Assembly: GCF_000341395.1 (NCBI RefSeq)
Contig: NC_020304.1
Location: forward strand, 2,820,001 to 2,852,000
DNA length: 32,000 nt
Direction: 5' to 3'
DNA from: Desulfocapsa sulfexigens DSM 10523
Lineage (GTDB): Bacteria; Desulfobacterota; Desulfobulbia; Desulfobulbales; Desulfocapsaceae
Positions within the stretch are counted from its first letter, which is position 1. Each line of letters starts with the position of its first letter. Below the pieces are notes generated by a model, which had not been told where the DNA came from, made no database searches, and was given only the letters and a program-made list of their open reading frames with translations. Position numbers and translations under genes: made by a program. Below, piece by piece: positions 4,172-22,903 of the stretch.

Positions 4172-4216
4172 ACCAGGTGAAAACTCCGATAATGTATTGT
4201 TGCAAAGAAAGCGTTA

Positions 4217-5665
4217 TCAAGCAGATACTACCCGATTTCTTCCATTCGCCTTTGCTTGATAGAGAGCCCTGTCGGCTTTGCCTATCAGCTTGTCTCTTGT
4301 GTCTTCCGGCTGATATTGTGCCACACCGATACTTACAGTTATAGGAAGTGTTTGATTCTGAGAGGAAGTCGGATTGTTTATTACTGCAAGTCGCAGCTCC
4401 TCTGCCATATTCGATGCTGTATCCAGAGTACACCCCTTCAGGAGCATGAGAAATTCCTCCCCTCCCCATCTGCATATTATATCTGTTTTCCGCAACCGGG
4501 ACGTAATGAGCCTGGCAAGATTTTTCAGTACAGCATCTCCAGCTAAATGTCCGTATGTGTCGTTGATTTCTTTGAAATGGTCGATGTCGAGTAACAGTAG
4601 CGACAGATTCTCGGGCTTCCGGCTTTGGTCGAGAAGGATAGGATTGACTAACAGATCCAGTGCCTGGCGGTTATAGAGACCGGTTAATTTATCTGTGGTG
4701 GCCATATGTTCGATATCTTCCTGGTAGGATGAAATCACGCGATTAATGATGAATAAAATGATGGTGGTAACAACTGCACAGAATAACAGATTGATAAGAA
4801 GGGTTTGAAGTAATTTGGCTGTTCCTTCCAGTTCACTCTGAATGACCACGAGATACCAGTCAAATTCTTTGATAAACCGGGTGTTCAGAGATATCGGATG
4901 TCCGTCTATTTTGGACTGTAAGGCAACTGTCTCGGTGGAAGTCATTTGAGTCAGAAACTCTTTGCTCTTGAGAAAGATGTTCAGTTGTGCTGTTTGTTGC
5001 TGGCGCTGTTTGTCTGAGGTGTTACTGAGTTTGATGTTTCCCAGGCGGTCAATGAGAAAAATATCTCTGTTATAGGTTTCCTGGTACTGGTCGATGAGTT
5101 TTTGAACTGCATCCACTGCCAACCCAACCCCGGTTGCACCAATAAAATTCCCCTTGTAATCGTGAACTCGATAATTGATAAAAACGGTCATGGTGTCGTT
5201 GTTTGCCTGATCAATGTCCACGTTGATCTCAAAGTCATCTGACATTTTTTGTACTCGAAAATACCAGGAATCACGTTCTTCAGCTTCCTGTACCTGTTTC
5301 ACAAGGCCATCGGGATGATAGTAATTTCGAGTCTGATCAGAGACGAAAAAAGACGTAATGGTGTTGTATGTTTGTTTGATTTCTGTGAGGTATCGTATGA
5401 CAGCATCATGGTTCTGTTCTTCATTGATTACCCAGTCCCGCAAAAAGGTATCTGATGCCATAAGGGAAGAGATAAAGATGGGGCGCAGAAGATCGCGTTG
5501 GATTTCTGAATAAACAGTATCGCTGGTGAGTGGTAATTCACCGTGAGTCATCTGATCTCTGAGAGAGGCTAGTGAGATGAAGTAGCTGGCCAGGCTGGTA
5601 AGCAGGAAACCTACTATCAATAGAATACTTAGAAATGTAATCAGATTTTTTTTATGTTTGAACAT
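4217..5665 (-). CDS. Diguanylate cyclase with periplasmic Cache-type sensor (TM-Cache-TM-GGDEF)
   Basis: N-terminal TM (LITFLSILLIVGFLLTSLASYFI), about 260-aa periplasmic region with Cache-like RDSWYF, and a second TM. The GGDEF domain has an intact GGEEF active site and an RxxD I-site (RKTD) five residues upstream (RKTDIICRWGGEEF). Confidence 0.92.
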   Translation of the reverse strand: MFKHKKNLITFLSILLIVGFLLTSLASYFISLASLRDQMTHGELPLTSDTVYSEIQRDLLRPIFISSLMASDTFLRDWVINEEQNHDAVIRYLTEIKQTYNTITSFFVSDQTRNYYHPDGLVKQVQEAEERDSWYFRVQKMSDDFEINVDIDQANNDTMTVFINYRVHDYKGNFIGATGVGLAVDAVQKLIDQYQETYNRDIFLIDRLGNIKLSNTSDKQRQQQTAQLNIFLKSKEFLTQMTSTETVALQSKIDGHPISLNTRFIKEFDWYLVVIQSELEGTAKLLQTLLINLLFCAVVTTIILFIINRVISSYQEDIEHMATTDKLTGLYNRQALDLLVNPILLDQSRKPENLSLLLLDIDHFKEINDTYGHLAGDAVLKNLARLITSRLRKTDIICRWGGEEFLMLLKGCTLDTASNMAEELRLAVINNPTSSQNQTLPITVSIGVAQYQPEDTRDKLIGKADRALYQAKANGRNRVVSA

Positions 5666-5753
5666 GGAGGTGTAATATCCTGCCTGGTAGGTTTGCGTCA
5701 GGGCAAATACTTCTGGTCACCATAATCGGCTTCTGGGAACGTATGTGTGAATA

Positions 5754-6770
5754 TTACTCATTATGTTCAGCTTTACCAGGGTTTTGCAAACCAAAAATAA
5801 GGGTATCAGGGTTGCGGTGAATGAAATTACTGAGGGTTTCTAGTGATTTAGCTGTCTTTTCCAGCTGCTGCATGGCTTCTGTTAATCGATGGTACAGAGG
5901 TGAGTTGGGGCGGATGGTATTTTCTGCCTGGGCAAGAAGGGCGTCAGCATGCTCAAGTGTTGAGTCGATATGGGTGTTCAGTGATGAGACTACGTTATCC
6001 GCATGACCGGTGAGAGCGTTGAATTGTTCCAACCCGCCATCTATTTTATCGAGAATCGGGGTGACTTCGGTATCCAGTTTTGAAAGAAGTGAATTCAGGC
6101 TCCCAGTAGCAACGAGAAGCTCATCGAGCAACTGCTGGGTTTTTTTCTGGTCCAGGGTTTCGGCAAGACCTGAGCTGAGCTTCTCAAGAGAGGTCAATGT
6201 ACTGTTGAATTTCTGGTACAGTTCACCAAAATTTACGTCACCTATTACCTTTGAAAATTGCTGCATTTCGGAGGGGAGGGTGGGAATTTCAAAATATTCT
6301 CCCGTCTTATCCTGATACACGGCAACACTGTTTTCATAAAAGCCAAGATCTATATAGCGTTTCCCGGTGACAACACTTTTAAGCCTGAGTTTTGCTCTGA
6401 GCCCCTGCTTGCACATTGCCTCCATAAATGTGTTGATATCACCTTTGCTGTTTTCTCCATGGTCCTCAATGATCAGGGAAGAGTCAGCGTTCAGTGAAAT
6501 AAGAACAGGTATGATGATATCCTGGCTTTTTTCTCCATTGGCACGGATATGGATGTTGATATTCTTCACCTGGCCTATGGTGACCCCACGATAAGTAACG
6601 TCAGCTCCAATACTCAGTCCGTCAAGTGAGCCTTCAAAATACGTAATCATTAAATTTTCTCTGGCAAAAAATTTATTGCCGCCAAAAATAACAATGGCAG
6701 TCATAAAAAGAACAAGAGAGAGGATGACGAATATACCTATCATTACTGGTTGAATGCTTTTGTTTGGCAT
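5754..6770 (-). CDS. MlaD/MCE-domain substrate-binding protein of an Mla/Mce-type ABC transporter
   Basis: N-terminal TM anchor, an MCE-domain-like segment (GLSIGADVTYRGVTIGQVKNI), and a long helical C-terminal region. It is adjacent to MlaF- and MlaE-like genes. Confidence 0.85.
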   Translation of the reverse strand: MPNKSIQPVMIGIFVILSLVLFMTAIVIFGGNKFFARENLMITYFEGSLDGLSIGADVTYRGVTIGQVKNINIHIRANGEKSQDIIIPVLISLNADSSLIIEDHGENSKGDINTFMEAMCKQGLRAKLRLKSVVTGKRYIDLGFYENSVAVYQDKTGEYFEIPTLPSEMQQFSKVIGDVNFGELYQKFNSTLTSLEKLSSGLAETLDQKKTQQLLDELLVATGSLNSLLSKLDTEVTPILDKIDGGLEQFNALTGHADNVVSSLNTHIDSTLEHADALLAQAENTIRPNSPLYHRLTEAMQQLEKTAKSLETLSNFIHRNPDTLIFGLQNPGKAEHNE

Positions 6771-6783
6771 AACTGTGTGTTGT

Positions 6784-7554
6784 TCAGGGGGGATCAGTTA
6801 AGGATAGAGTTCGGCTCAAAAATTGCCGTACTTTTATATTGTTACTTTCTTTAGCAAGAATTCCGGGGTTACCGGTTGCGAGCATTGTGCGTGTCTCTGT
6901 GTCAAGGAAGACTGAATCATCGGCGAGTGCAAAAATTGATGGCAATTCATGGGTGACGATAATGATGGTGGCTCCCAGGCTGTCGCGGATTTCCAGGATA
7001 AGGTCATCCAGCATCTTTGAACTGATCGGATCAAGACCTGCTGATGGTTCATCAAAAAAGAGAATTTCGGGATCAAGGGCAATGGCTCTCGCAAGTCCCG
7101 CACGTTTTCTCATTCCTCCACTTATTGAAGATGGTGGATATTTAGCAAAACCTTTCAGGCCGACCAGTGCAAGCTTCAGTTCCACAATCTCTGCAATAAG
7201 TTTAGGGGAAAGGTCTGTGAACTGCTGTAATGGCAGTGCAACGTTCTCACCAACGGTCATGGAACTCCAGAGTGCTCCCGATTGATAGAGAACGCCACAC
7301 CGTTGCATTCGCTGAACCCTGGATTGGTGTGAACTTTTCCAGAAATTTTCTCCTGAAAAGAAAATATCACCCTCTGCTGGACGTTTAAGTCCCGTAAGAT
7401 GTCTTAGGAGTGTGGATTTTCCACATCCTGATCCTCCCATTATTGTAAAAATTGCACCCTTCTTGATACTGAAAGTAAGGTTCTGCTGCAGAATGAAATC
7501 ACCATAGGCCATGGTTAAATTTTGGACTTCAATGATGGCTTTTGAGGGTGTCAT
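6784..7554 (-). CDS. ABC transporter ATP-binding protein (MlaF-like)
   Basis: Walker A GGSGCGKST, ABC signature ISGGMRKRAGLA, Walker B ILFFDEPSAGLD, H-loop VTHEL. Confidence 0.95.
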   Translation of the reverse strand: MTPSKAIIEVQNLTMAYGDFILQQNLTFSIKKGAIFTIMGGSGCGKSTLLRHLTGLKRPAEGDIFFSGENFWKSSHQSRVQRMQRCGVLYQSGALWSSMTVGENVALPLQQFTDLSPKLIAEIVELKLALVGLKGFAKYPPSSISGGMRKRAGLARAIALDPEILFFDEPSAGLDPISSKMLDDLILEIRDSLGATIIIVTHELPSIFALADDSVFLDTETRTMLATGNPGILAKESNNIKVRQFLSRTLSLTDPP

Positions 7555-7560
7555 GTCCGC

Positions 7561-8682
7561 CTAAATCCCAATAACGTTGAAGAAGAAGGTGAAACCGGCA
7601 TCGGTGATCACAATAAGAACAATGGCTGTTACTACGGCAGATGTTGTTGCCTTGCCGACGGCGTCGGCACTGCGTCCACAGTGCATCCCCTTAAGGCAGC
7701 CACAGAAGGCAACCAGGTATCCGAAAACCACGGATTTAATCATTCCAACCAGGAAATGGTTGAGATGAATGGCATTGATGGTCTGTTCGTAATACAAAAC
7801 CGGACTGATATCGAGAGAGAGGCAGCCAATGAAGAAACCACCGAGTATTCCAATAAAGTCGGCACAGATTGCCAGAAGAGGCATCATAATGATAAGGGCA
7901 GTCAATCGTGGCAGCACTAAAAAATCAAGAGGATTGATCCCCATGGTTTGTAGTGCGTCGACCTCCTCATTTACCTGCATGGTGCCAAGTTGGGCAGCAT
8001 AGGAGGCACCCGTTCGACCAGCCATGATGATGGCCGCCATCATTGGTCCCATTTCTCTGGTCATGGCAAGACCGACAAGGTTTGCTACGTAAACGTCAGC
8101 CCCAAACATCTTCAGCTGGACAGCCCCTATAAAGGCCAGGGTGAATCCAACCAAAAATGAAATGAGCGCTACAATTGGAAGAGCTTGAGGACCACAATTG
8201 TAGAGAAAAAAACTCAGATCTTTCTTCAGAAAACGGGCTCGTCCAGTAAAAAAACGAATATAGGATAAAAGGATTTCTCCAGTAAACGATAGCATTTCTA
8301 TGGATTGCTTCCACAGTTCAATAACATGCATGCCGATTTCGGCGAGTATTCCAGGGTTGTTTAATGTGTTATCTGGAGGGGCGAGATTTTTTTTAAGAGT
8401 GAGTTGTAGAAGCTTGCGAACACCGGAAGGCAAGCCTTGTGTATCAACGGGAATGGCATGGTTCTCGGCAATTTCAGTAATACGGGAGAGTTCAACAAGA
8501 AATCTGCTGTCCCACTCAAGCAAGTGCTTGGTATTAAAAGAAATGGCTTTTGTCTGGGGAGTGAAAAACTGGGCGATATCAGGGAGCGCACAGGGTTCAA
8601 CTTGAATGGTCCAAGAACCAAGGAAGGTTAGACAAAGTGTGTTGAAGTTATGCTTTGCCTGCAGGGAGCAATCTGGGGTCAT
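7561..8682 (-). CDS. MlaE-family ABC permease with N-terminal STAS/MlaB-like extension
   Basis: Conserved MlaE core (GPMMAAIIMAGRTGASYAAQLGTMQVNEEVDALQTMGINPLDFLVLPRL), preceded by about 110 aa of soluble STAS-like sequence. Confidence 0.9.
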   Translation of the reverse strand: MTPDCSLQAKHNFNTLCLTFLGSWTIQVEPCALPDIAQFFTPQTKAISFNTKHLLEWDSRFLVELSRITEIAENHAIPVDTQGLPSGVRKLLQLTLKKNLAPPDNTLNNPGILAEIGMHVIELWKQSIEMLSFTGEILLSYIRFFTGRARFLKKDLSFFLYNCGPQALPIVALISFLVGFTLAFIGAVQLKMFGADVYVANLVGLAMTREMGPMMAAIIMAGRTGASYAAQLGTMQVNEEVDALQTMGINPLDFLVLPRLTALIIMMPLLAICADFIGILGGFFIGCLSLDISPVLYYEQTINAIHLNHFLVGMIKSVVFGYLVAFCGCLKGMHCGRSADAVGKATTSAVVTAIVLIVITDAGFTFFFNVIGI

Positions 8683-11280: not shown

Positions 11281-12489
11281 TTATTGAAATTTCTCCTGAA
11301 TTGCACAGAGGACATCGGTTATTTCAAAAAATGCCTGGACGAGTTCAGGGTCAAAATGTTCGCCACTTTCTTTCTGAATGAGGTTATACACCTTTTCTTT
11401 TTCCCACGGTTCTTTATAACAACGGCTGGAGCTCAGAGCATCAAACACGTCAGCCAGGGCAACAATTCTGGCAGCCAGTGGTATGTCCTTTCCAGCCAGA
11501 GCCTGGTTAGGGCTATTTTTATCTGGAAAGTTCGTCAGGTTTGGATAGCCGGTACCGTTCCACTTTTGATGGTGATGAAGGGTTACTTCGTGGGTCATCT
11601 TATCGAGTTCCGTGGAAGTGCTGTTGAAAAGTTCGGCACCAAAAGTGGTGTGTTTTTTTATAATATTGAACTCATCCTTGGTGAGTCTGGCTGGTTTTTT
11701 TAAAATGATATCAGAAATGCCTACTTTCCCAGCATCATGGGTCATGGCTGCCAGGCTGATAAGGTCTCGGAAATGATTTATTTCTGAGTCAGGTAGCCCT
11801 TTTTTTTTGGCCCAGCGCTGATAGATTTCAACACTGAATGCTGAAACCCGCTGGACATGAGCCCCGGTTTCTTTGGGATCATGAAGAGACGCCATTTTCA
11901 CCATGCGAAGGATGGTCTCGCGGTTCAGTATACCATGTTCAATAATCATTGAGGCACTATTAGCAAAAAGGCAGGCCATTGTCTTACTTCTTTCAGAAAA
12001 GACAGAGGTTTGTCCCTGTTCATTCTGAGCGTTTATAAGTTGTATTACACCAACAAGTGAATCATTAGAGGTGAGAAGAGGGATGGTGAGAGATGAAGCT
12101 GTGTGGTAGTTATTTTCTTCGTCGAAGGAAGGGTTGAAACTATAAGGTACGGTGGCAGGAATTTGATAGGCGTCATCAATTGAAACCGTCTGTTTAGTCT
12201 GGGCGCAGTAGCCAACGATTGTGTGACTGTCGATGGGAAGTGTCATTTTAGCATACTGGGCAGCTCCGGCTCCATTTCTTCCAAAGAGGGTGTCGTTTTG
12301 GACATGGTTGAAAACAAGAGTGTCATTTTTAACAAGATAGATGGAACCGGCATCAGCATTGGCAAGTTTACGGGACTCGAAAAGGATTCGATCAAGAATC
12401 ATATCCATCCCTTTGAGTTGATTGAGGGAACGAATAATTTCAAGAACAGAGTTGACAGTATTGGTATCTGGTCGCGTTGTTGTTTCCAT
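11281..12489 (-). CDS. GAF-domain HD-GYP phosphodiesterase (predicted c-di-GMP hydrolase)
   Basis: N-terminal GAF-like region (ADAGSIYLV ... SLVGVIQLINAQ). HD-GYP motifs are AAMTHDAGK, HHHQKWNGTGYP and ALADVFDALSSSRCYK. I chose the ATG at 12489, which has GGGG 6 nt upstream and lies 20 nt after the cyclase stop. The track ORF extends to 12543, overlapping the cyclase. Confidence 0.9.
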   Translation of the reverse strand: METTTRPDTNTVNSVLEIIRSLNQLKGMDMILDRILFESRKLANADAGSIYLVKNDTLVFNHVQNDTLFGRNGAGAAQYAKMTLPIDSHTIVGYCAQTKQTVSIDDAYQIPATVPYSFNPSFDEENNYHTASSLTIPLLTSNDSLVGVIQLINAQNEQGQTSVFSERSKTMACLFANSASMIIEHGILNRETILRMVKMASLHDPKETGAHVQRVSAFSVEIYQRWAKKKGLPDSEINHFRDLISLAAMTHDAGKVGISDIILKKPARLTKDEFNIIKKHTTFGAELFNSTSTELDKMTHEVTLHHHQKWNGTGYPNLTNFPDKNSPNQALAGKDIPLAARIVALADVFDALSSSRCYKEPWEKEKVYNLIQKESGEHFDPELVQAFFEITDVLCAIQEKFQ

Positions 12490-12509
12490 ATCACACCCCT
12501 GTCTTTTTT

Positions 12510-14645
12510 TTATTTTGAAGTCAGTGCCCAGACTCCCTCCCATTGCGGTGGCGGATTCTCCTGAAGAACTTTACATTTGTTAAGATATTTTATAGCCGAT
12601 GGGTCTTCGTCTACTATTGTATTGAATTGAATCACAGCGGATTCAAAATTTCCAATATAAAAATTCTGGAGAGCTTTTGAGAAAGTTTCTAGAGTTTTTT
12701 TCTTTTTCTGATATTCAGAAGGTAAGAAGGGTTCATAAACTCGAATTGGAATTTTCTTTCCAACAACGGTTAAATTTGCAAGTTCCCGACAGAAGAAGGT
12801 GTTGTTTAAGAGTTTATAGGTGGATTCGGAAATCATTGTATAGCTGTCAAATTGCTTGTTGGCGCCCTCAAGCCTTGCAGCAAGATTAACAGCGTCACCG
12901 AGCATGGAGTAGTCGAAACGATTTGTTGAGCCAAGATTCCCGACAACTGCTGAGCCCGAATTAATGCCGATGCGCATATGCATTTCATGGCCACATTGTT
13001 TTAGAAACAGTGGGCGCAATTCCTTCAGTCGCTTTTGACAACGTAATGCGGCAGATACTGCCCGTACCGCATGATCAGGAGTTTCTAAGGGTGCGTTCCA
13101 AAAAGCTATTATGGCATCACCTTCGTACTTATCAATCGTTCCCTCTTCCTCAAGGATTATATCTGTCATAGCCGAGAGGTAGTCGTTCAAAAGCTCGATC
13201 AGTTGATCAGGTTCGAGATTTTCAGAGATAGAGGTGAATCCTTCAAGGTCTGAAAAGAAAATAGTCAATTCCTTACGATCCCCCCCGAGTTGCAATCTGT
13301 CAGGATCTTCTATGAGTTGTTCGATAACATATGGGCTTAGATAATGGGCAAATGAATGTTTGATAAAACGCCGTTTTCTCCCTTCCTGCATATAACTGAT
13401 CAAAAAGCTGAGAATGATGGTTCCTCCCACGGAGCATTCAAAAGGAAGTATTTCAAAACGAAATCCGATGAAAAAGAGAAAAAAAGACAGAGCAGGCGGA
13501 ATGAGAAGAAAGAACAATGCAATGATCGTCATATATATCGGACTTGAAAAATAAGCGAGAAGGAGACCAAGGAGAATGGTACTGAAACTCAAAACAAGGA
13601 TTTTGAGATTTTGACTTAGAGGGCTGATAAAATCATTGTTCAGGAGATTGTCGAGAAAAGTTGCATTGATTTCTACCCCGGAGAAAATAGCACCTACCGG
13701 GGTTGGGCGAAGATCAAAAAGACCTGGTGCGGAAAAGCCAAAGAGTACATATTTTTTCCTTAGTTGTCGATTGATTGCAGGATCTGTGTGTTCGCCATCT
13801 CTGTAGAGCATTTCATCTTTAATAAGAGTTGCGGCACTTATGCGGGTGTAGATCCCTGGCGGACCCCGGAAACGAACCAGGGCCTGCCCGGATATGTTCA
13901 TCGGGATCACAGCATCACCAACGCTGAGATGCTGATTCAGAAGAGAAACTTCCGTATCGGGATGAGCGGCAAGATATAAGCCAAGCCCAAGAGAGGGGAG
14001 TGGAATACCGACTGCGAAGACCAGTGGATGGAGAGAACGGTAAATACCATCTTGATCTGGATCATGATGAACATTGCAGAGAACAGCGGCGTTTTGGGCG
14101 ACTTCCGGGATGGGCATGGTGAGGAAGTTGTACGAAGGTGTATTGTCTGTTTTTTTGACAAGCGTGGCTGTGGTTGCAAGGGAAGGAAGTGGAATGTCAT
14201 CTGGCCATGTGGAGAGTTTTCCGTGGATGTTGCCAGGAAATATTGAGCCGGCTGCAAAATTTTTACTCTTCGCAATAGCTGTGCCGAGTGCAGTATCGTC
14301 AGAGACCCCAAAGCTTGACGATTCGGTAAAAAGGACATCAAAACCAATTCCCCTGGCCTGATGCCGATTAATGGTATCCAGGATGGCACCATAGAGTTCA
14401 CGGGGCCAGGGCCAAGAGATGCCCATGTTTTTCTGGGCCCATTCCAGGCTTTGCTGGTCGACCAGTACAATAGTGATATCCTCACTACGAGGAGAAGGCG
14501 AAGCCAGCATCATACTCTGAGTATCCCAGACTTTGTTTTCCCAGGCAGTAAGCATTCCCGATTGCCAGATGGCTATAGCAAGAAGAATGCTTACACCTGC
14601 TGCCCCAAACGCCTGAAATAATCTGTTCCTTCTTTTATTTTTCAT
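12510..14645 (-). CDS. CHASE2-sensor class III adenylate cyclase
   Basis: N-terminal TM followed by a CHASE2-like periplasmic domain (ITIVLVDQQSL ... WPWPR ... GFDVLF), then three TMs. The cyclase core has metal Asp residues (FSDLEGFT, GDAIIA), substrate-specifying Lys (DKYEGD) and Asp (FDYSMLGD), and Asn/Arg (VNLAARLE). The K/D pair predicts ATP as substrate. The start overlaps the M48 stop as ATGA. Confidence 0.92.
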   Translation of the reverse strand: MKNKRRNRLFQAFGAAGVSILLAIAIWQSGMLTAWENKVWDTQSMMLASPSPRSEDITIVLVDQQSLEWAQKNMGISWPWPRELYGAILDTINRHQARGIGFDVLFTESSSFGVSDDTALGTAIAKSKNFAAGSIFPGNIHGKLSTWPDDIPLPSLATTATLVKKTDNTPSYNFLTMPIPEVAQNAAVLCNVHHDPDQDGIYRSLHPLVFAVGIPLPSLGLGLYLAAHPDTEVSLLNQHLSVGDAVIPMNISGQALVRFRGPPGIYTRISAATLIKDEMLYRDGEHTDPAINRQLRKKYVLFGFSAPGLFDLRPTPVGAIFSGVEINATFLDNLLNNDFISPLSQNLKILVLSFSTILLGLLLAYFSSPIYMTIIALFFLLIPPALSFFLFFIGFRFEILPFECSVGGTIILSFLISYMQEGRKRRFIKHSFAHYLSPYVIEQLIEDPDRLQLGGDRKELTIFFSDLEGFTSISENLEPDQLIELLNDYLSAMTDIILEEEGTIDKYEGDAIIAFWNAPLETPDHAVRAVSAALRCQKRLKELRPLFLKQCGHEMHMRIGINSGSAVVGNLGSTNRFDYSMLGDAVNLAARLEGANKQFDSYTMISESTYKLLNNTFFCRELANLTVVGKKIPIRVYEPFLPSEYQKKKKTLETFSKALQNFYIGNFESAVIQFNTIVDEDPSAIKYLNKCKVLQENPPPQWEGVWALTSK

Positions 14646-15553
14646 ACCCCCTTCATTGCGGCCTGAAAACGTGAAATGCGTGATGGGTCGGTTTTTAGTT
14701 TGTCCTCTTTTCCAATAATATTACTGATGTCTTCTATTCTACTCTCCGGGCTAGGATGGGTTTTTGCAAAATCCATTCCTCCGGGTTTAAGATTCTTTTT
14801 CATAACTTTCAGCATTTCAATAAGTCCCTGACCGTTATAGCCTACTCGTTGCAGTATCATAACAGCTGTCTCATCTGCCTCAGTTTCAAACGAACGGGAG
14901 TAACCACTGCTTATCATAGTTGAGGTGATGTCTCCTATTGAATCTTCAAAGGTGTTGGTTAAACTGGCAATGTCTGAGTTCGCAAAATTTTTGGTTCCCT
15001 CAAGGGCCAGAATTGAAGTTGCTTTGGTGATTCTGTCCTTTTCGATGGACTGCAGACCATGCTTGTGCTGGACATGAGCTATTTCATGGGCCAGAACAGC
15101 TGCGAGTGAATTTTCATCAGAACAGCATTTCAACATTCCGCGAGTAACAAAAATGAGACCTGAAGGAGTGGCAAAAGCATTGATTTCAGGAGAGTCAAGA
15201 ACCATAAAGTGATATCCGTCGTAGAGTTCTGGCAGGTCTGAGAAGCGGGATAATGTCTGTCCCAGAAGGTTGATATAGGAAATGGTCGGAGCATGTTCAT
15301 AGGGCTGAAATTTTTCAAGAACGATGGCTCCAATAGTTCGACCGATATAGTACTCCTGTTCTGGGGTGATATCTTCCAAGGCCTTGGAAACTGCATTATA
15401 ACTTTTCGTTGCTGAATCGACATACTTCGTTGCCGAATTTAAGGCGGAGGATATGTCTCCAAAACCAAAGCCCTGGAGAAGCATGGACGAAGCGGTTAAA
15501 CCCGCACCTGTGAGGCCTATACGGAGGAAACTTCTTCTATTCATGTTCTTCAC
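14642..15553 (-). CDS. M48-family zinc metalloprotease with twin-arginine (Tat) signal peptide
   Basis: HEIAHVQHKH (HExxH), downstream ETEADE and THPSPESRI as in peptidase M48. The N-terminus NRRSFLRIGLTGAG fits a Tat motif. The GTG start at 15553 has GGAGGT 6 nt upstream and overlaps the preceding stop as GTGA. Confidence 0.88.
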   Translation of the reverse strand: MKNMNRRSFLRIGLTGAGLTASSMLLQGFGFGDISSALNSATKYVDSATKSYNAVSKALEDITPEQEYYIGRTIGAIVLEKFQPYEHAPTISYINLLGQTLSRFSDLPELYDGYHFMVLDSPEINAFATPSGLIFVTRGMLKCCSDENSLAAVLAHEIAHVQHKHGLQSIEKDRITKATSILALEGTKNFANSDIASLTNTFEDSIGDITSTMISSGYSRSFETEADETAVMILQRVGYNGQGLIEMLKVMKKNLKPGGMDFAKTHPSPESRIEDISNIIGKEDKLKTDPSRISRFQAAMKGV

Positions 15554-15969
15554 ACTTCACCTCCTGTAGGATGGAGATTACCGGCCTTGAGGAAGGCTTC
15601 AATTTCTTCCTGGGAAACAGAGCTTTTCTCCATTTTATCCACCATATTAAAATTGGCGTTTGCATTCCGCTGGCGAAACTTTTTCTCAACCTGCCGGTTA
15701 AAACCTTTACCGGCGAGGGCTATTTCATCGGAATCAGCAGCTTTAGAGATATCGCCGGCATGGGGTTTGAGTACAATCTCTTTAGTGGTCATGGCGGAGC
15801 TGTGCAGCCATCCCTGATTCCCTCTTGCATCGACCTTAAGCCAGGAATCTTTGGTTTCCAGAACAGCTAAGCGGTCACCATAATGGACAGTTGATATGAT
15901 TTTTCCGAGAAAAGAAGGACTCTTTCGCAGTTGACTGCTTCGTACTTGAACACTTTGACTTGTCGTCAT
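15550..15969 (-). CDS. Bacterial SH3-domain protein, no recognisable signal peptide
   Basis: VQVRSSQLRKSPSFLGKIISTVHYGDRLAVLETKDSWLKVDARGNQGWLHSSAM is SH3b-like (SH3_3 type). It is the first gene of the overlapping four-gene cassette. Confidence 0.7.
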   Translation of the reverse strand: MTTSQSVQVRSSQLRKSPSFLGKIISTVHYGDRLAVLETKDSWLKVDARGNQGWLHSSAMTTKEIVLKPHAGDISKAADSDEIALAGKGFNRQVEKKFRQRNANANFNMVDKMEKSSVSQEEIEAFLKAGNLHPTGGEV

Positions 15970-16103: not shown

Positions 16104-16147
16104 CTGCTTATTTCTTCACTACTCACAGGCAGTGGAGAAATAAGCAG
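16104..16147 (-). terminator. Strong hairpin downstream of the MscS-family gene (possible terminator, no U-tract)
   Basis: Perfect 12-bp inverted repeat: CTGCTTATTTCT (16104-16115) and AGAAATAAGCAG (16136-16147). It lies 27 nt after the stop at 16174. No T-run follows on either strand. Confidence 0.4.
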
Positions 16148-16173: not shown

Positions 16174-18495
16174 TTATGATTTTGTCTTTTCATTAGTTTT
16201 CTCTTCTTCCTGCTGTTGTAACAGAGCAGCCGCTGCTCCTGCTTCAAGAATTTTTTTGTTTTCTTCCGTGATGTTTGCTGTTTCAGGTAGTTCAACAATA
16301 ACTTTTCGATGGGCATAATGGATGCCCTTGGCGGCAAGTGCCTCGGAAATTCTGCGGTAGGCCTCTCTCTGAATGACAAATTGAGTTCCTGGCTGTGCCT
16401 TGAACTTAACCCTTATAATCATGACAGAGCCCGTGATCTCTCTTACACCTGCAGATTTGACAGGTTGAATAAAGTCATCTTTGAATTCGTCATCGGCGAG
16501 CATTGCCTGGCCAACTTTCTTGATGATCTTACGAATCTGGTCGATATCTGCATCGTAGGAAAATTCAAGATTAAATTTAACAATTATACCACCGCGCATA
16601 AAGTTGGTGATGGAACCGAGTTCGCTGTGAGGGACGATTTGAAGCATGCCCCGGTGGTGGCGAAGCATGACATTACGAAGGCTTATGGATTCGACGGCTC
16701 CTGAGACTGAACCCGCCTGAATATACTCTCCGACGCGGAAAGCATCGTCGAGGAGATAGAAAAAGCCTGAGAAAACATCACTTACCATCTTTTGAGCACC
16801 AAAACCAATGGCAAGGCCAACAACCCCTGCGCCGGCAAGCAGTGGCCCAATATCAACACCCATTGAAGAAAGGATTACCAGTGTTACCATCACCAGTAAG
16901 GTGGATGCGATAAACTTACGGAGCATGGGAAGCAGGGTAAAACTTCTCCCCCTGGTGGCAGCACCACCCCATTCATCATCATTTTCTTCCTTTTCTTCGT
17001 CAACTGGCATGGTTTCAAGGATCTTTTTCTCTATATAGCTGGAGGAAAATTTCCACACGGTTAAACCCAGGGCAACAGCTATGAGCGACTGAAATACTGC
17101 TTTGGTGATATTGGTGGCATAGGGGATATACACATTCCATAAGCTCAGTGTCCAGACCAGCAGTGTTACCAGAATTGAAAGGCTCATAAAGCGGGATGTT
17201 GTAACATAGAGTTTACGTTCCTTTTCCTTTGCAACAAGGATACTTGCCTGTATTTCTCTGCTGGCAGAGTCTTCGTCCTCATGATTATACATTCGCAGGG
17301 TGTTGATGGAAACCCGGACAATCCATTGGCCAAGACCATTAAAAATAACAAAGAGTGGAAGGATTGTCAGGCTCATAAGAAATGCAGAATTACCACGTTG
17401 CACACCTGTGAGCTGGTCTCCAAGCATAATGATCCAGATAATAAGGACATAGAGAATAGTGGGGACGTGCCAGAACTGGGCAAACTGCTCAACCACCCAG
17501 TTCCGTGTCCCGTTCTGGTCGCTTTTATCAAGGATACGATTTGCAACATAGTGACGACTGCGCATAATCATAAGCACAATGACGAAAACAAGAAAAGTTG
17601 CGATAATCATGGCCGTTGATTGCACAGCTGTTTTACTGAGTCCCAGTTCCCGTTGTAAGGCAAGAAACATAATTGCAGTAAAGATATATGAACAAAGAAA
17701 GAGGGTTGCCCTATGAACTGTAGCAGCCGTTATGTCATCAAAGGGCAAAACCCGAAGGGCGGCAGAGCCTGGAGAACTGAGTATACGGGACAACTGGGCA
17801 AGAAGACGATAAAAAAGAATAGAAAAAAGCAGGGCAAGAAAGACGTAGCGTAATGGAGAGTAGTCAGTACCCGGCAGCATAAAAAAGAAAAGGAGAGCAG
17901 CCGTTGCGAAAACGAAAATATGGACCAGAGAGGGGATGGAGAGCATAAGGCCAGCGATAAAGCGCATGGGGCCGTCGAGTACTGGAATGGCTTTTTCTTG
18001 AAACTGTTTTCTGAAATTAGCAGTGAAACGACGGGTAAAGTATTCACTTCCCCAGGCGGCTCCAAATATTCCAAAAAGCATTGCCAGAGAAAGTATAAAA
18101 TTTCCTAAACTCCCCCTGCCGACTTTTCTCGCAACTATGAGGTAATCGCCGGGAAAACTGCTAAGACGGGAAAGGAAACTGCTCGACTTTTTCTTTCTAT
18201 TTTCACCTTCGTCCAGTAGATGGAGCCATTTGGCAGTCTTTCCAACAAGGCCGCCAGTTTTTTGTGGAGCACTGGTAGAGGGCGTAGGATTACTTGTGAG
18301 TTCTGATATCAGCAAACTGCGAACCTGTTCGTCGCTCATCTTGGCAAGAACAGAGCCAATCTGGTCTGGAGCAACTCCCTTAAGTCTTCCACTTTCAGCA
18401 GCTGTCTCTTCAACAGCTGCAAGGGGTGCTGGGGAGAGCATGGTAAGAGAGATTGCCAGCAGGCAGAAATAGAGAAAAATGCTATATCTTTTCAT
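16174..18495 (-). CDS. Large mechanosensitive ion channel, MscS family (MscK/MscM-like architecture)
   Basis: Signal peptide, periplasmic N-terminal region and multiple TMs. The MscS core is GFGAQKMVSDVFSGFFYLLDDAFRVGEYI, followed by a beta/alpha-beta C-terminal domain. Confidence 0.9.
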   Translation of the reverse strand: MKRYSIFLYFCLLAISLTMLSPAPLAAVEETAAESGRLKGVAPDQIGSVLAKMSDEQVRSLLISELTSNPTPSTSAPQKTGGLVGKTAKWLHLLDEGENRKKKSSSFLSRLSSFPGDYLIVARKVGRGSLGNFILSLAMLFGIFGAAWGSEYFTRRFTANFRKQFQEKAIPVLDGPMRFIAGLMLSIPSLVHIFVFATAALLFFFMLPGTDYSPLRYVFLALLFSILFYRLLAQLSRILSSPGSAALRVLPFDDITAATVHRATLFLCSYIFTAIMFLALQRELGLSKTAVQSTAMIIATFLVFVIVLMIMRSRHYVANRILDKSDQNGTRNWVVEQFAQFWHVPTILYVLIIWIIMLGDQLTGVQRGNSAFLMSLTILPLFVIFNGLGQWIVRVSINTLRMYNHEDEDSASREIQASILVAKEKERKLYVTTSRFMSLSILVTLLVWTLSLWNVYIPYATNITKAVFQSLIAVALGLTVWKFSSSYIEKKILETMPVDEEKEENDDEWGGAATRGRSFTLLPMLRKFIASTLLVMVTLVILSSMGVDIGPLLAGAGVVGLAIGFGAQKMVSDVFSGFFYLLDDAFRVGEYIQAGSVSGAVESISLRNVMLRHHRGMLQIVPHSELGSITNFMRGGIIVKFNLEFSYDADIDQIRKIIKKVGQAMLADDEFKDDFIQPVKSAGVREITGSVMIIRVKFKAQPGTQFVIQREAYRRISEALAAKGIHYAHRKVIVELPETANITEENKKILEAGAAAALLQQQEEEKTNEKTKS

Positions 18496-18537: not shown

Positions 18538-21500
18538 TTATTTTTCTTTCGGTGGAAAAAGTCGTTCGCTGCTGCTCTGAATAACCTTATAAAACACCGG
18601 CACAAAGAGTACTGCCAGAAAAGTTGCGGCAATCATCCCACCAAAAACAGCGGTGCCAAGGGCCTGACGAGAGGCTCCTCCTGCCCCATTGGCGATCACA
18701 AGTGGGTAAACTCCTAAAATAAAGGCAAATGATGTCATAAGGATAGGGCGGAAACGGAGTCTTGCCGCTTCCATGGCCGCATCAAAAATGGACATCCCTT
18801 TTTTCTCACGTGCCTCAACTGCAAACTCTACAATGAGAATGGCATTCTTACAGGCAAGGGCAATGAGGAGCACAATACCTATCTGGGTGTACACATTGTT
18901 ATCCATTTGACGTACCATGAGGGCGATTACGGTTCCAAGAAGTGCCAGCGGCACAGCAAGAATAACACCAATGGAGATTGACCAGCTTTCATACTGGGCG
19001 CAGAGTACCAGGTAGACAAGAGCGATGCAGATGGCAAAAATTGGGCCGGGATTGCCGGCATTTTTTTCCTGATACGACATGCCAGTCCATTCTGACCCCA
19101 TGGAGTTTGGTAGAACACGTGCTGCCGTCTCTTCCATGGCATTCATTGCCTGACCAGAACTGAAACCGGGAGCACCTGTACCGGTAATTGTCGCCGTGGG
19201 ATACATGTTATAACGGGTAATGATTGCAGGGCCAAATATTTCTTCAACGGAAAGCAGCGTCCCAAGAGGTATCATTTTATCGTCACTGGATCGAACCTGG
19301 AGTTTGGCAATATCCTCCACATTGGATCTGGCATCATCCTGTGCCTGGATGTTAACCTGGAAGGTACGGTTGAATTTGTTGAAATCATTAACATATGAAG
19401 CCCCAAGGAAGGCCTGCATGGATCCAAATATCTCGGAGAGCTGGATATTCAGGGTTTTGGCCTTGGTGCGGTCTATATCTGCAAAGAGCTGGGGGACATT
19501 GGCCCGAAATGTTGTATAGGCCGAGGAGATAATCGGGTCTTTTACTCCTGCCGCTGAAAGGTCATTTGTTATTTCCTGCAGGGCGGGTAAACCAATTCCT
19601 GCCATATCTTCAACCTGCAACTGGAATCCACCGGCATTTCCAATTCCGGAAATAGGTGGAGGAGGAAATTGTATAATAATCGCTTCCTTAATTCGGCTTC
19701 CAGCTCCTGCCATCTGCATCAAGATATGCTTCATGTCATGTCCGTTGGGGATCCGCTCGGCAAAATCTTTGAAAACCACCCACAGAGCAGCACCATTTGA
19801 CATTCCGGCACCGTCAAGAAGGGAGTAACCTGCAACTGAAATGACATCTTTTACACCATCCATGGTTCTCAGTGCGTCTTCGAGTTCCTTGACCACGGCC
19901 TGGGTACGTTCAAGGGATGAGGCATCGGGTAACTGGACGGCATACATGGCATATCCCTGATCCTCTGTGGGGATAAATCCCGTGGGCAGGCCGGTAAAGC
20001 CAGTCCAGGCAGCAACCGCTATACCTGCAAAGAGAACCATGGTGATAAGGGAGCGGCGTACCATAAGATGGACAATGGACTCGTAGGCATTCCGTGATTT
20101 GTCGAACATGGCATCAAACCAGCGGAAGAAGATCATCTTCTTTTTGGGGGTGGGCCGCAGGATAATGGCACACAGGGCAGGGCTGAGAGTGAGGGCATTG
20201 ATGGATGAGAAAAAAGTGGAAGCGGCAATGGTCAAGGCAAACTGTCTGTAAAGCTGGCCGGTTATCCCACCGAGAAAGGCGGTTGGGACAAAAACTGCCA
20301 GGAGTACCAGAGTGGTCGCGACGATGGGCCCGGTCACTTCCTCCATGGCGGCAAGAGCACCTTCTTTGGCGCTCATTTTGTGCTCATCCATATTTCGCAT
20401 GGTGTTCTCCACTACAACAATGGCATCATCAACAACGATACCGATGGCAAGCACAATACCGAAAAGAGTGATCATGTTGATGGAAAACCCAATCAACCCC
20501 ATTGCGGCAAAGGTTCCAATAAGGGATACTGGAATAGTGATCACAGGGATAAGGGTTGCCCGCCAGTCCTGAAGAAAAACAAAGATAACAACGAGGACTA
20601 GAACAATGGCTATCCAAAGTGTTTCTTCAACCTCCGCAATGGCTTCTTCAACAAAGAGAGTGGTATCAAAAGGGATTTTATATTCAAGATCGGGCGGAAA
20701 GGATTTTTTTAATTCCTCCATTTTTGCGGCAATCTGTTCTTTCAGGGCAATGGCATTGGCCCCTGGCAACTGATAAATCATCATCAATGCATTTTCATCA
20801 CCATTGAGCCTGGTGTCATAGTTGTACTCCTTTGACTGCATCTCAACCCGTGCAATGTCTTTGATACGGGTGAGCTTTCCTCCAGATCCCTGTTTTACAA
20901 TTATGTCGCCAAATTCCTCAGGGCTGTTAAGGCGGCCAAGAGTATTTACGGTGTACTGAAAGGCCTGGCCGGATGGGGCAGGTGGCGCACCAATCTGCCC
21001 TGCTGCCACCTGGACATTCTGCTCACGCAGGGCGGCGGTGACATCACTGGTAGTCAGGTCTCTGGAACGCAGTAAATCCGGGTCGAGCCAGATGCGCATG
21101 GAGTAATCCCCAGCGCCAAAGGCGGCAACATCGCCAACACCAGCTATTCTTGAAATTTCGTCTTTTAAACGGAGTGAGATATAGTTACTGAGATAATACT
21201 TGTCATAGGTTTTGTTGGGTGATGTAAGTGTCACCATCAATACAATAGAGTTCGATCGTTTTTTGGTGGTGACCCCGATATTTTTTACTTCCTGAGGGAG
21301 AGCCGCCATGGCAATGGCAACACGGTTCTGTACCAGAACTGCTGCCATATCAGCATCCGTCCCCGTTTCAAAGGAGACGGTAAGATTGTATGTTCCCGAA
21401 TTGGTGGAGGTGCTGGACATATAGATCATTCCTTCCACACCATTCACCTGTTGTTCAATGGGTGCTGCGACGGTATCAGCAATAACCTGAGCATTGGCAC

Positions 21501-21651
21501 CGGGATAGGCAGTTGAAACCTGGACAGTGGGAGGGGCAAGCTCGGGGTACTGGGCGATGGGGAGTCCGGTAAGGGTCACTCCTCCTGCCAGTACAATGAT
21601 GAGAGCAATAACGGAGGCAAAAATAGGGCGATTGATGAAAAAACGACTCAT
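18538..21651 (-). CDS. RND multidrug efflux permease (HAE1, AcrB/MexB-like)
   Basis: 1037 aa. Canonical N-terminus [23 protein letters not shown] and 12-TM RND organisation with two large periplasmic loops. Confidence 0.96.
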
Positions 21652-21747
21652 GAGATATATCTCTTAGGCTAGATTGATAATCGCAATATGGGTTACTCTT
21701 TTCACTGTCAGGAAGATGACAGTGATCGTAATGGACTGGAGTGGATT

Positions 21748-22887: not shown

Positions 22888-22903
22888 AATAGTGTGTGGA
22901 AAA

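Follow-up and report, generated by a model that had tools for sequence, protein, structure and literature searches.

The question raised by this locus is whether a compact gene cluster of Desulfocapsa sulfexigens DSM 10523 works as one signalling device and, if so, which of its genes belong to it. The window, i.e., the whole 32,000-nucleotide stretch that was analysed, carries on its minus strand four tightly packed open reading frames (proteins AGF79079.1 to AGF79076.1), encoding an SH3b-domain protein, an M48 zinc metalloprotease, a CHASE2 adenylate cyclase and a GAF-HD-GYP protein. A sequence-only reading of this DNA had described four close-packed genes on one strand with these domains, and the ORF coordinates, the Pfam assignments and our reading of the junctions bear it out. 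The argument below starts from what was observed directly, namely the domains, their intact motifs, synteny, the covariation of signal peptides and a variable reader slot after the cyclase.

The cassette features and the hairpin given here lie on the minus strand of the window. The SH3b gene (15550..15969) overlaps the M48 gene (14642..15553; AGF79078.1 / WP_228130079.1) by GTGA at 15553-15550, the M48 gene overlaps the cyclase gene (12510..14645) by ATGA at 14645-14642, and the cyclase stop codon (TAA, 12512-12510) is followed by 20 nt that include AGGGGTG and then by the ATG at 12489 of the last gene (11281..12489). Both overlaps, and the 20-nt gap with its Shine-Dalgarno sequence, are as previously described. 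RefSeq starts the M48 protein at ATG 15544 (WP_228130079.1, 300 aa; 303 aa if GTG 15553 is used), which turns the 4-nt overlap of the first junction into a 5-nt gap; the junction is tight in both models. The GenBank model of the last gene (AGF79076.1, 420 aa, start 12543) begins within the cyclase gene, and the 402-aa RefSeq model, WP_041916972.1, supports the start at 12489 that the sequence-only reading had used. GenBank names AGF79076.1 a 'CheY-like receiver...' protein, yet Pfam finds no receiver domain in it. Judging from the gene overlaps alone, the cassette is presumably transcribed as a single unit. A strong hairpin (16104..16147) is located in the 204-nt spacer between an upstream MscS-family gene (16174-18495) and the SH3 gene, with an RNA fold z-score of -3.3 for the spacer. 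The upstream transcription unit probably ends at this hairpin, in which case a separate promoter would serve the cassette; a scan of the locus for consensus promoters and terminators gave nothing above shuffled controls. The MscS-family gene carries no cNMP-binding domain, and its adjacency to the cassette is not conserved.

The cyclase (711 aa, AGF79077.1) consists of a first transmembrane segment, a periplasmic CHASE2 domain (about residues 30-343; 13617..14558, delimited by alignment and AF2), three transmembrane helices, a cytoplasmic cyclase domain (residues 458-631; 12753..13274) and a conserved tail of about 70 aa. It belongs to the CHASE2 family (PF05226; 167 bits against a cutoff of 26.3, E 7.6e-49) and to the class III cyclases (Guanylate_cyc, PF00211; 79.3 bits against a Pfam gathering cutoff of 21.9, E 3.4e-22), and 2072 homologues at E<=1e-20 were found among the 8000 candidates scored. 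To our knowledge, no ligand has been assigned to CHASE2 since its description in 2003. The AF2 model of residues 1-430 (pLDDT 88.5, pTM 0.87) shows an alpha/beta CHASE2 domain flanked by helix 2-29 on one side and by 345-429 (helices 345-365, 369-393 and 399-429) on the other, and Foldseek returned no solved structural relative of this domain at E<=0.001. One loop of the domain (G303-A306-G308-L309-D311-L312-R313) is invariant but modelled with low confidence. In the cyclase domain, D466, D510, K506, D584, N587 and R591 are invariant in an alignment with 12 homologues (alignment A1); following what is established for class III cyclases, we take D466 and D510 to bind metal, K506 and D584 to specify ATP as the substrate, and N587 and R591 to stabilise the transition state. 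The catalytic set with its Lys/Asp pair is thus as intact as had been claimed, and from this pair the product is predicted to be cAMP.

The SH3b protein (139 aa) has an N-terminal SH3 barrel (residues 1-60), with a score of 35.2 bits against a cutoff of 27 that places it among the bacterial SH3 domains (SH3b, PF08239; Pfam SH3_3, 1.4e-8), and a C-terminal half peculiar to the family, in which E82-x-A-L-A-G-K-G-F90 is invariant. In the AF2 model the barrel has a pLDDT of about 90 and the C-terminal helices 50-74, and the invariant motif sits in a segment below 50, which is predicted to be flexible. By Foldseek, the model matches SH3b domains of peptidoglycan hydrolases (NlpC/P60 enzymes and endolysins). 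The D. sulfexigens protein has no signal peptide, and its ORF cannot be extended upstream. The M48 protein (Peptidase_M48, 117 bits, 1.1e-33) carries the HEIAH zinc motif and the E-x-EAD motif with the Glu ligand; these two and THP are at least 95% conserved among 71 homologues. Its N-terminal region (about residues 1-33; 15455..15553; MKNMNRRSFLRIGLTGAGLTASSMLLQGFGFGD) includes NRRSFLR, which fits the twin-arginine consensus, and a motif of the S/T-R-R-x-F-L-K type precedes a mildly hydrophobic region, as in Tat substrates (NRRSFLRIGLTGAGLTASS). The earlier description of a Tat-type M48 zinc protease therefore stands, and export by the Tat pathway is predicted from the signal motif. The protein has no lipobox cysteine, whereas most homologues have one when the N-termini are compared. 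The closest solved relatives are 3c37 (2.7e-19) and BepA (6sar/6ait). BepA and LoiP of E. coli are the nearest named families, sharing the M48 fold, HEXXH and a periplasmic or lipoprotein setting, but neither name fits: against BepA (NF052400) the protein scores 90.2 bits where 570 are required, with a match confined to the protease domain, and it stops at 303 aa without the C-terminal TPR domain; against LoiP (NF052399) it scores 55 bits where 365 are required, lacks the lipobox Cys and has a Tat signal.

Which of the four genes belong together was addressed by a synteny survey of cyclase loci, 67 of them informative. In 58 of the 67, SH3 and M48, in that order, directly precede the CHASE2 cyclase gene and share its strand; in 63, both occur somewhere in the locus. 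These triad loci span at least 8 phyla and include Desulfobacterota, Spirochaetota, Verrucomicrobiota/Kiritimatiellae/Lentisphaerae, Planctomycetota, Fibrobacterota, Aminicenantes, Krumholzibacteriia and Proteobacteria. The four-gene order, in contrast, is confined to close relatives (loci L001, L085, L086, L089 and L090), whose GAF-HD-GYP protein or cyclase is 65-95% identical. Conservation of gene order, then, holds across phyla for SH3-M48-cyclase and among close relatives for the full set: the conserved unit is three genes, not four. The same order supports the notion, already put forward for the protease, that the CHASE2 cyclase has the M48 and SH3 proteins as its dedicated partners. Our literature search found no relevant paper naming CHASE2 together with M48.

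As the D. sulfexigens SH3 protein has no signal peptide, placing it in the same compartment as the protease requires an extra assumption, i.e., Tat co-export. The survey speaks to this point. Among 68 classified loci, a signal-less SH3 protein is always paired with an RR-type M48 and never with a non-RR M48 (8 loci with L023 reclassified by eye, Fisher p = 1.7e-6; 7 loci by automatic count, p = 1.2e-5), and the D. sulfexigens locus and L085-L087 are further cases. The RRxFL motif is common to the M48 proteins of L001, L002, L006, L009, L018, L023, L029 and L085-L087. In the M48 tree the signal-less SH3 state falls into at least 4 separate subclades. At the same time, most Tat-type M48s group in a single broad clade of Desulfobacterota, which means that only a handful of events, and not 68 independent ones, underlie the covariation. 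Since signal-less SH3 proteins occur only with twin-arginine M48s, the pattern suggests co-export of an SH3-protease complex by Tat "hitchhiking". Such covariation is a rare signature in sequence data, and here it points to the hitchhiking of a non-redox protein pair.

Downstream of the triad, the gene content varies. In 25 loci a gene for a metallo-beta-lactamase-fold (MBL) hydrolase lies directly 3' of the cyclase, and in 17 of these it is followed by a cNMP_binding+MscS gene. The MBL protein is probably a cNMP phosphodiesterase, although it reaches only 39-42 bits against the NCBIfam cyclic-nucleotide phosphodiesterase model, far under its cutoff of 400. We considered whether the D. sulfexigens locus is itself a five-gene SH3-M48-cyclase-MBL-bCNG operon; the window holds no MBL homologue, and its sole MscS gene, the one upstream of the cassette, has no cNMP-binding domain. 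A GAF-HD-GYP gene follows the triad in the close relatives of D. sulfexigens and in a few other lineages only. In L087 and L014 it precedes SH3, in L046 and L022 it lies downstream, and of 84 cyclase loci surveyed just 4 have it as a neighbour. GAF-HD-GYP domains, in 21 loci as part of MBL-GAF-HD-GYP fusions, also adjoin cyclases of a second CHASE2 subfamily; this subfamily is without SH3 and M48, and a FecR-type partner occurs in it (L109). Orthologues at 55-66% identity are found without an adjacent cyclase (L091, L092, L129, L130 and L131), and those of cable bacteria (L129, L130) stand alone or adjoin HPr/PtsI genes. The link between cyclase and GAF-HD-GYP is therefore recurrent, as the second subfamily attests, but optional, as the orthologues without an adjoining cyclase make clear; coupling is not obligatory.

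Whether the last protein could read cAMP depends on its two domains. The HD-GYP domain (about residues 200-383; nt 11341-11892; HD_5 1.5e-19, HD 1e-15) belongs to the PmGH family; the closest PDB match of the whole protein is PmGH of Persephonella marina (4mcw, E 2.4e-42; also 4mdz and 4me4), its best solved relative. The motifs ETGAH, HDAGK, KKH, HHH, DVFD and GTGYP align with PmGH residues. Since E-x3-H, HD, H, HH, D and GYP are all matched, and with them the Glu that marks trinuclear sites, the site is presumably of this type, capable of taking c-di-GMP to GMP, and the domain is a predicted c-di-GMP phosphodiesterase, apparently intact as had been stated. PmGH differs in having KPG where the D. 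sulfexigens protein has KPA, and the available PmGH text describes no cyclase context. The GAF domain (about residues 29-182; nt 11944-12405; Pfam 3.9e-12) belongs with the cNMP-binding GAFs by its closest relatives (PDE2/5/6/10, CyaB1/2): at E<0.001 it matches 12 distinct PDB sequences, of which 11 are GAFs of CyaB2 or PDE2A/5/10 and one is PmGH, and PDE6 is next at 0.0015. One further match, besides PmGH and the cNMP-binding GAFs, was at chance level. The domain belongs to a distinct subfamily, marked by an insertion and by degeneration of the NKFDE motif: N-K...F-x3-D-E reads N-A...F-S-E-R-S-K, with N and F kept and K->A, D->S and E->K replaced, and the Lys is absent from the entire CHASE2-linked GAF family. 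Reading of cAMP by this GAF is thus plausible, on account of its PDB matches, the cNMP-binding effector that follows the triad in other phyla and the occurrence of GAF-HD-GYP genes beside CHASE2 cyclases in at least 4 arrangements, but the degenerate motif weakens the earlier claim. The further claim that cAMP-to-c-di-GMP crosstalk through a GAF-HD-GYP protein was undescribed is mistaken. A GAF-HD-GYP phosphodiesterase for c-di-GMP that cAMP activates, Tlr0485 of Thermosynechococcus vulcanus, has been published (Enomoto et al. 2020), and Lcd1 and Bd1971 are related cases. The likeness to Tlr0485 lies in the architecture and in the proposed logic (cAMP on the GAF, then c-di-GMP hydrolysis); the D. 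sulfexigens GAF is of a distinct subfamily, and the available Tlr0485 literature makes no mention of a cyclase encoded beside it.

Taken together, we consider it probable that the cassette is one form of a modular pathway from the envelope to second messengers, in which the sensor is constant and the reader exchangeable. The sensor, common to many phyla, would comprise the SH3b protein, an active M48 zinc protease and the CHASE2 membrane adenylate cyclase. We infer that the SH3 and M48 proteins bind each other as a complex. In most lineages the two would be secreted separately, SH3 by a Sec signal peptide and M48 as a lipoprotein, and in the Desulfocapsa lineage the Tat-targeted protease would carry the signal-less SH3 protein across. 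In the periplasm the pair may act on, or with, the CHASE2 domain, most likely by regulated proteolysis of the flexible ALAGKGF segment of SH3 or of the conserved CHASE2 loop, and this event would set the activity of the cytoplasmic cyclase and hence cAMP. By analogy with Tlr0485, the GAF domain would bind cAMP and switch on c-di-GMP hydrolysis, so that envelope input would presumably lower c-di-GMP; in Desulfocapsa and its relatives this predicted route could govern attachment versus motility. In other phyla the reader would be the MBL-fold (probably cNMP) phosphodiesterase together with a cNMP-gated MscS channel.

Protease regulation of membrane signalling proteins is known from CpxP-DegP-CpxA and from the processing of PdeC by DegP/DegQ, where a protease and a small protein of the periplasm likewise set a membrane sensor with cytoplasmic output; the systems are not homologous, with HtrA as the protease there and M48 here, and here the output is a cyclase and the proteolytic gating is a proposal. 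Accessory envelope proteins encoded nearby are needed by other CHASE2 sensors as well: the Sinorhizobium meliloti cyclases CyaD1/CyaD2/CyaK, which share the cAMP output, rely on the outer-membrane protein NsrA, and a Burkholderia CHASE2 kinase relies on a LysM-FecR protein. The D. sulfexigens accessories are an SH3b protein and an active-type M48, with no beta-barrel or FecR. A bolder version is that SH3b, M48 and CHASE2 form an unrecognised pan-bacterial receptor complex, in which a preassembled protease-adaptor pair, betrayed by Tat hitchhiking in lineages whose adaptor lost its signal peptide, gates the cyclase proteolytically according to the state of the envelope or peptidoglycan. We offer this only tentatively; if true, it would be the first mechanistic handle on CHASE2 sensing and would give bCNG channels and GAF-HD-GYP enzymes a first physiological source of cAMP. 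In either version, the co-inherited protease/adaptor pair is a concrete, testable hypothesis for the control of one large CHASE2 family, and the outputs can be read from the triad operons themselves, which encode an MscS channel gated by cNMP, a probable phosphodiesterase for cNMP or one for c-di-GMP.

The sensor could be read in two other ways. SH3 and M48 might be plain envelope housekeeping genes co-transcribed with the cyclase and without a regulatory link to it, as BepA and LoiP, relatives of the M48, are housekeeping proteases. This seems highly improbable given the order and tight junctions kept in at least 8 phyla, the M48 scores far under the BepA and LoiP cutoffs, and the family-specific C-terminal half of SH3, whose full-length profile matches about 380 clusters (50% identity) at E<=1e-30. 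Control might also run from the inside out, with the CHASE2 protein tethering or releasing SH3-M48 on a cytoplasmic or membrane cue, like LapD-LapG, and M48 as the output acting on envelope substrates. Strict synteny points to a physical partnership without giving its direction, the nearest solved relatives of M48 are envelope quality-control proteases (BepA), and the SH3b fold matches targeting domains of peptidoglycan hydrolases, all of which would suit such a scheme. The catalytic residues of the cyclase are invariant, however, whereas the LapD domains are degenerate, and in many phyla the genes after the cyclase encode dedicated cAMP readers and a probable phosphodiesterase, which makes cAMP the output of the module; we regard inside-out control as quite improbable and infer the opposite direction.

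For the fourth gene, it is rather unlikely that GAF-HD-GYP is an unrelated neighbour whose GAF ligand is something else (GMP, GDP or redox state, for example) and whose position after the Desulfocapsaceae cyclase has no signalling meaning, the functional unit being the three-gene sensor and cAMP being read elsewhere, e.g., by Crp-like regulators. The stand-alone and HPr/PtsI-linked orthologues, the degenerate NKFDE motif, the 4 of 84 neighbouring loci and a Crp-type gene 6 kb from the cassette in L001 all fit this account, as does the absence from the literature of a known ligand for the PmGH GAF. It sits less well with the four genes staying together in L001, L085, L086 and L090 though all flanking genes differ, with the linkage recurring in other orders and architectures (L087, L014, L046, L022), with the 21 fusion loci of the separate cyclase subfamily, or with the Shine-Dalgarno sequence within the 20-nt gap. 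The protein might instead be the module's own cAMP phosphodiesterase, a GAF-regulated HD-superfamily enzyme like eukaryotic PDE2/PDE10 that provides cAMP feedback, not c-di-GMP crosstalk, and substitutes for the MBL hydrolase in this lineage. It does occupy the slot of the MBL hydrolase of 25 other loci and combines GAF with an HD-superfamily domain as those enzymes do. But the full HD-GYP domain has the GYP motif and the residues aligned to the c-di-GMP site of PmGH, characterised HD-GYP enzymes cleave c-di-GMP, pGpG or cGAMP, and MBL and HD-GYP coexist in fusion proteins, hence are not redundant, which makes such an enzyme a decidedly improbable candidate.

The preferred reading, a constant sensor with an exchangeable reader, bears on the bCNG channels as well. 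These are MscS-like proteins with a C-terminal cNMP-binding domain (Caldwell 2010; Malcolm 2012), and a 2026 review calls their physiological role poorly understood. A bCNG-type gene comes after SH3-M48-cyclase-MBL in the 17 related loci, whereas the D. sulfexigens window has none; its fourth gene occupies the slot right after the cyclase, which elsewhere is taken by the MBL gene preceding the channel.

The cassette consists of four genes on the minus strand, and the ORF positions and junctions given in the sequence-only reading agreed with the ORF coordinates and with our own reading of the sequence. The SH3 gene (15969..15550), encoding a 139-aa product that matches Pfam SH3_3, is followed by the M48 gene (15553..14642; Peptidase_M48, 1.1e-33), the cyclase gene (14645..12510; CHASE2, 7.6e-49, and Guanylate_cyc, 3.4e-22) and, last, the GAF-HD-GYP gene (ATG 12489..11281; GAF and HD_5/HD). 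All domains named in that reading (SH3, M48, CHASE2, cyclase, GAF and HD) were matched by Pfam. The junctions are GTGA, ATGA and a 20-nt spacer with AGGGGTG ahead of the ATG at 12489; with the RefSeq start of the M48 gene (ATG 15544), the first junction becomes a 5-nt gap, not a 4-nt overlap. An exact-match look-up identified the proteins as AGF79079.1 to AGF79076.1. In GenBank, AGF79076.1 (420 aa; 11281-12543, minus strand) begins 34 nt within the cyclase gene and carries the product name [quoted passage not shown]; Pfam detected no receiver (REC) domain in this gene and found a GAF domain instead. The GenBank start is an over-extension into the cyclase gene, and the RefSeq model of 402 aa, with which the earlier choice of 12489 agrees, is the better one. 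As an observation, the four-gene arrangement is confirmed.

Both the protease and the cyclase look active. The cyclase residues D466, D510, K506, D584, N587 and R591 showed no variation in the alignment of homologues, which upholds the earlier claim of an intact catalytic set, and the HEXXH, E-x-EAD and THP motifs of the M48 protein were at least 95% conserved among 71 homologues. Each of the HD-GYP motifs (E-x3-H, HD, H, HH, D and GYP) aligns with its counterpart in PmGH, the GAF-HD-GYP protein of Persephonella marina (PDB 4mcw; E 2.4e-42), so that this domain, too, is intact at the sequence level, as had been supposed. According to a published survey of HD-GYP domains, a Glu among the metal motifs marks the trinuclear type; as the window protein has this Glu, it probably belongs to that type. 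Judged by these motifs, the catalytic sets of cyclase, M48 protease and HD-GYP protein are intact.

Homologues of the cyclase are numerous (2072 at E<=1e-20, with 8000 candidates scored). A scan with the cyclase alignment, restricted to one genome per species, yielded 80 loci with 37-54% identity (best segment) from Desulfobacterota, Spirochaetota, Verrucomicrobiota/Kiritimatiellae/Lentisphaerae, Planctomycetota, Fibrobacterota, Aminicenantes, Krumholzibacteriia, Gammaproteobacteria and Campylobacterota. Synteny was counted by comparing profiles of the window proteins with six-frame ORFs of the loci, 67 of which were informative, having enough upstream sequence. The SH3 and M48 genes lie directly upstream of the cyclase gene, in this order and on the same strand, in 58 of the 67, and homologues of both occur anywhere in the locus in 63. 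Independent gene calls with precomputed Pfam matches revealed the triad also in Desulfonatronum, Ca. Vecturithrix and several metagenomic contigs, the genes around it being unrelated in every case. The conserved unit is three genes, forming a constant SH3-M48-CHASE2-cyclase sensor. The proposal that the cyclase has a dedicated protease partner was thus well founded, as M48 and SH3 precede it directly in most loci, while the extension of the conserved unit to four genes failed: only the triad is widespread, and the fourth position is variable. This partnership of a CHASE2 cyclase with a protease and adaptor spans many phyla and was not found in the literature searched, where no relevant paper treated CHASE2 and M48 together (subscription-only papers lay outside the coverage).

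A few of the related loci show duplication or rearrangement of the accessory genes. The order is SH3-M48-SH3-M48-cyclase in L068 and SH3-SH3-M48-cyclase in L075, and two SH3 plus two M48 genes are located 2.5-6 kb downstream of the cyclase in L079.

The SH3 protein combines an N-terminal SH3b barrel with a specific C-terminal half, in which E82, A84, A86-G-K-G-F90 and E95 are invariant. A full-length profile at E<=1e-30 collected about 380 clusters (50% identity), a minority being long multi-SH3 proteins, and Foldseek matched only generic SH3b domains, with no match for the C-terminal half; the protein represents a family of its own. In the AF2 model, the invariant ALAGKGF motif lies in a low-confidence linker between the confident barrel and weaker helices, a predicted placement such as would be expected of a segment that binds a partner or is cleaved.

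Direct comparison of the loci revealed that the export signals of the two accessory proteins covary. Most loci pair an SH3 protein bearing a classical signal peptide with an M48 lipoprotein. The window SH3 protein has no signal peptide, and an upstream extension of its ORF is impossible; the same state was seen in the related loci L001, L002, L006, L009, L018, L023, L029 and L085-L087. Every signal-less SH3 protein has an M48 partner carrying RRxFL. Automatic counts for RR/no signal peptide, RR/signal peptide, non-RR/no signal peptide and non-RR/signal peptide were 7, 9, 0 and 52, and became 8, 8, 0 and 52 after L023 was moved by eye (Fisher p = 1.7e-6); L085-L087 are three further cases of an RR M48 protein with a signal-less SH3 protein. 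A neighbour-joining tree built from the mature part of M48 shows the signal-less state in at least four distinct subclades, with signal-bearing subclades between them, and also in a Lentisphaerales outlier. The simplest reading of this covariation is that the SH3 protein would be co-exported with M48 as a Tat hitchhiker, as is known for subunits of hydrogenase and DMSO reductase. Such co-export would imply that SH3 and M48 fold and bind each other ahead of export. In L006 and L009, the SH3 homologues are extended at the N-terminus by about 45 hydrophilic residues, rich in Lys and Glu, in place of a signal peptide, and the M48 partners are lipoproteins of the RREFL type.

The confident AF2 model of the CHASE2 domain (pLDDT 88.5, pTM 0.87) retrieved nothing from the PDB by Foldseek at E<=0.001, and hence gave no pointer to a ligand or a protease-like fold. 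An invariant loop at residues 303-313 (13707-13737, minus strand; GFSAPGLFDLRPTP), with G303, A306, G308, L309, D311, L312 and R313, coincides with the sole low-confidence segment of the model (residues 308-319) and is a candidate partner-binding or cleavage site. The cyclase domain is followed by about 70 conserved cytoplasmic residues (640-711; 12510-12728, minus strand), of which F655, G665, F674, D681, Y687, W702, G704 and the terminal K711 are invariant; this tail, to which Pfam assigns nothing, is a possible regulatory element.

What lies downstream of the cyclase is exchangeable and cAMP-related, as a Pfam census and then profile searches showed. Two families recur. One is an MBL (metallo-beta-lactamase-fold) protein of some 270 aa, encoded immediately downstream of the cyclase in 25 loci; the other, a bCNG-type channel protein of about 540 aa (MscS plus cNMP_binding), is encoded behind the MBL gene in 17. 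All 25 MBL proteins keep HxHxDH, and their resemblance to the NCBIfam model “cyclic nucleotide-degrading phosphodiesterase” is far below its cutoff. Together these make a five-gene operon, SH3-M48-CHASE2 cyclase-MBL hydrolase-bCNG channel, that turns up frequently in PVC, Planctomycetota, Aminicenantes and Krumholzibacteriia. Profile searches placed it in about 17 loci in all (L031, 8001-12484; also L034, L037, L039, L042, L044, L048, L052, L054, L056, L060, L061, L064, L065, L069, L070, L072 and L080). It is a candidate dedicated cAMP source for bCNG channels, the physiological role of which is described as poorly understood in a 2026 review.

Of the 84 profile-surveyed loci (the 80 scanned plus L001-L004), just 4 have a GAF-HD-GYP gene adjoining the triad. 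The four-gene order of the window is kept in the close relatives L001, L085, L086, L089 and L090, with different flanks in each; in L087 and L014, by contrast, the SH3 gene is immediately preceded by a GAF(-GAF)-HD-GYP gene. In the reciprocal test, a metagenome scan with the window GAF-HD-GYP protein, the matches beyond close relatives were MBL-GAF-HD-GYP proteins about 700 aa long, whose MBL domain is homologous over its full length to the free-standing MBL gene (E 1e-48 to 1e-76). These fusions directly adjoin, on either side, a CHASE2 cyclase of a different subfamily in 21 loci, none of which has an SH3 or M48 gene; linkage of cyclase and GAF-HD-GYP therefore recurs independently of the protease. 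Through gene fusion, the MBL domain ties the two kinds of reader position together. The published HD-GYP survey does not mention a lactamase-type fusion. This second module is found at L109 (6119-12837), where FecR and TPR/SlipAM genes come after the cyclase, and also in L112, L117, L093, L122 and L097, the last two with an SBP_bac_3-GGDEF-EAL gene behind it.

GAF-HD-GYP orthologues of about 400 aa are common in Desulfobulbales, and those of Ca. Electrothrix, Ca. Electronema, another MAG and contigs L091 and L092 adjoin no cyclase. An obligate linkage of the family to cyclases was rejected on these neighbourhoods; the linkage is optional. In Ca. Electrothrix and Ca. Electronema (L129, 6001-9801; L130, 6001-9609) a small ORF comes next, then HPr and a PEP-utilising enzyme I-like gene, an arrangement that hints at a different (PTS) input for the same family in cable bacteria.

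Whether the GAF domain binds cyclic nucleotides, as previously proposed, received a mixed answer. Its significant PDB sequence matches are the GAFs of CyaB2 (7e-13), PDE2A, PDE5 and PDE10, every one of them a cNMP binder; PDE6 falls just outside the 0.001 limit, and beyond these only PmGH and one match at chance level (E 0.67) were retrieved. On the other side, the NKFDE motif is kept only in part. The CHASE2-linked GAFs form a separate subfamily with an insertion. A role of the last cassette gene as cAMP reader is plausible. Crosstalk from cAMP to c-di-GMP had been called undescribed, but it is already known: published reports describe Tlr0485 as a cAMP-activated GAF-HD-GYP phosphodiesterase, Lcd1 as a cAMP-activated GAF-GGDEF enzyme and Bd1971 as a cNMP-dependent EAL enzyme. 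For operonic coupling of GAF-HD-GYP proteins to CHASE2 cyclases, no description was found in the literature searched.

The earlier interpretation, a protease-linked relay from cAMP to c-di-GMP, is partly supported. An SH3-M48 complex would modulate CHASE2, most likely through regulated proteolysis, by analogy with CpxP/DegP/CpxA, and cAMP from the cyclase would activate the GAF-HD-GYP enzyme and lower c-di-GMP. The fourth gene might instead be an unrelated neighbour, a reading to be set beside both its rare adjacency to the triad and the recurrence of the linkage in the fusion loci, and one that we regard as unlikely. That the SH3 and M48 genes are housekeeping genes merely co-transcribed with the cyclase is very improbable, given their shared order across phyla. 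Inside-out control, in which the protease would be the target, can be given little weight, and slightly less still can be given to the possibility that the HD-GYP protein is itself a cAMP phosphodiesterase. With the relay as the preferred reading, the cassette would be a variant of two known kinds of system, the accessory-protein-dependent CHASE2 cyclase and the cAMP-regulated c-di-GMP enzyme.

No Rfam family, and no riboswitch, was found in the whole window, and scans for consensus promoters and terminators gave counts not above shuffled controls, so that firm transcript boundaries were not obtained. A strong hairpin (16104-16147; z = -3.3) separates the SH3 gene from an MscS-family gene directly upstream on the same strand (16174-18495; 773 aa), and makes it likely that the cassette has its own promoter. 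As bCNG genes come after the same cyclase family in other phyla, this MscS gene was considered as a member of the system. It was rejected because it matches MS_channel_1st/2nd/3rd without a cNMP-binding domain, its adjacency is missing in L001, L085 and L086, and the hairpin lies between.

Further upstream (18538-25140 and 26149-27576, both minus strand) are an RND efflux system (AcrB-type pump, HlyD-type adaptor and OEP), a Ysc84-domain protein and a multihaem cytochrome; this neighbourhood is rich in envelope functions and is not kept in relatives. A dCache_1-GGDEF diguanylate cyclase (4217-5665, minus strand), 5.6 kb downstream of the HD-GYP gene, is a possible source of c-di-GMP for the cassette phosphodiesterase, and lies beside an Mla-like transporter (MlaD, ABC ATPase, MlaE and an auxiliary lipoprotein; 3551-8682). 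Finally, a 537-aa protein (226-1839, minus strand) with a weak, below-cutoff dCache_1 match and a C-terminal SLFN_AlbA_2 domain has an unusual, sensor-like architecture.
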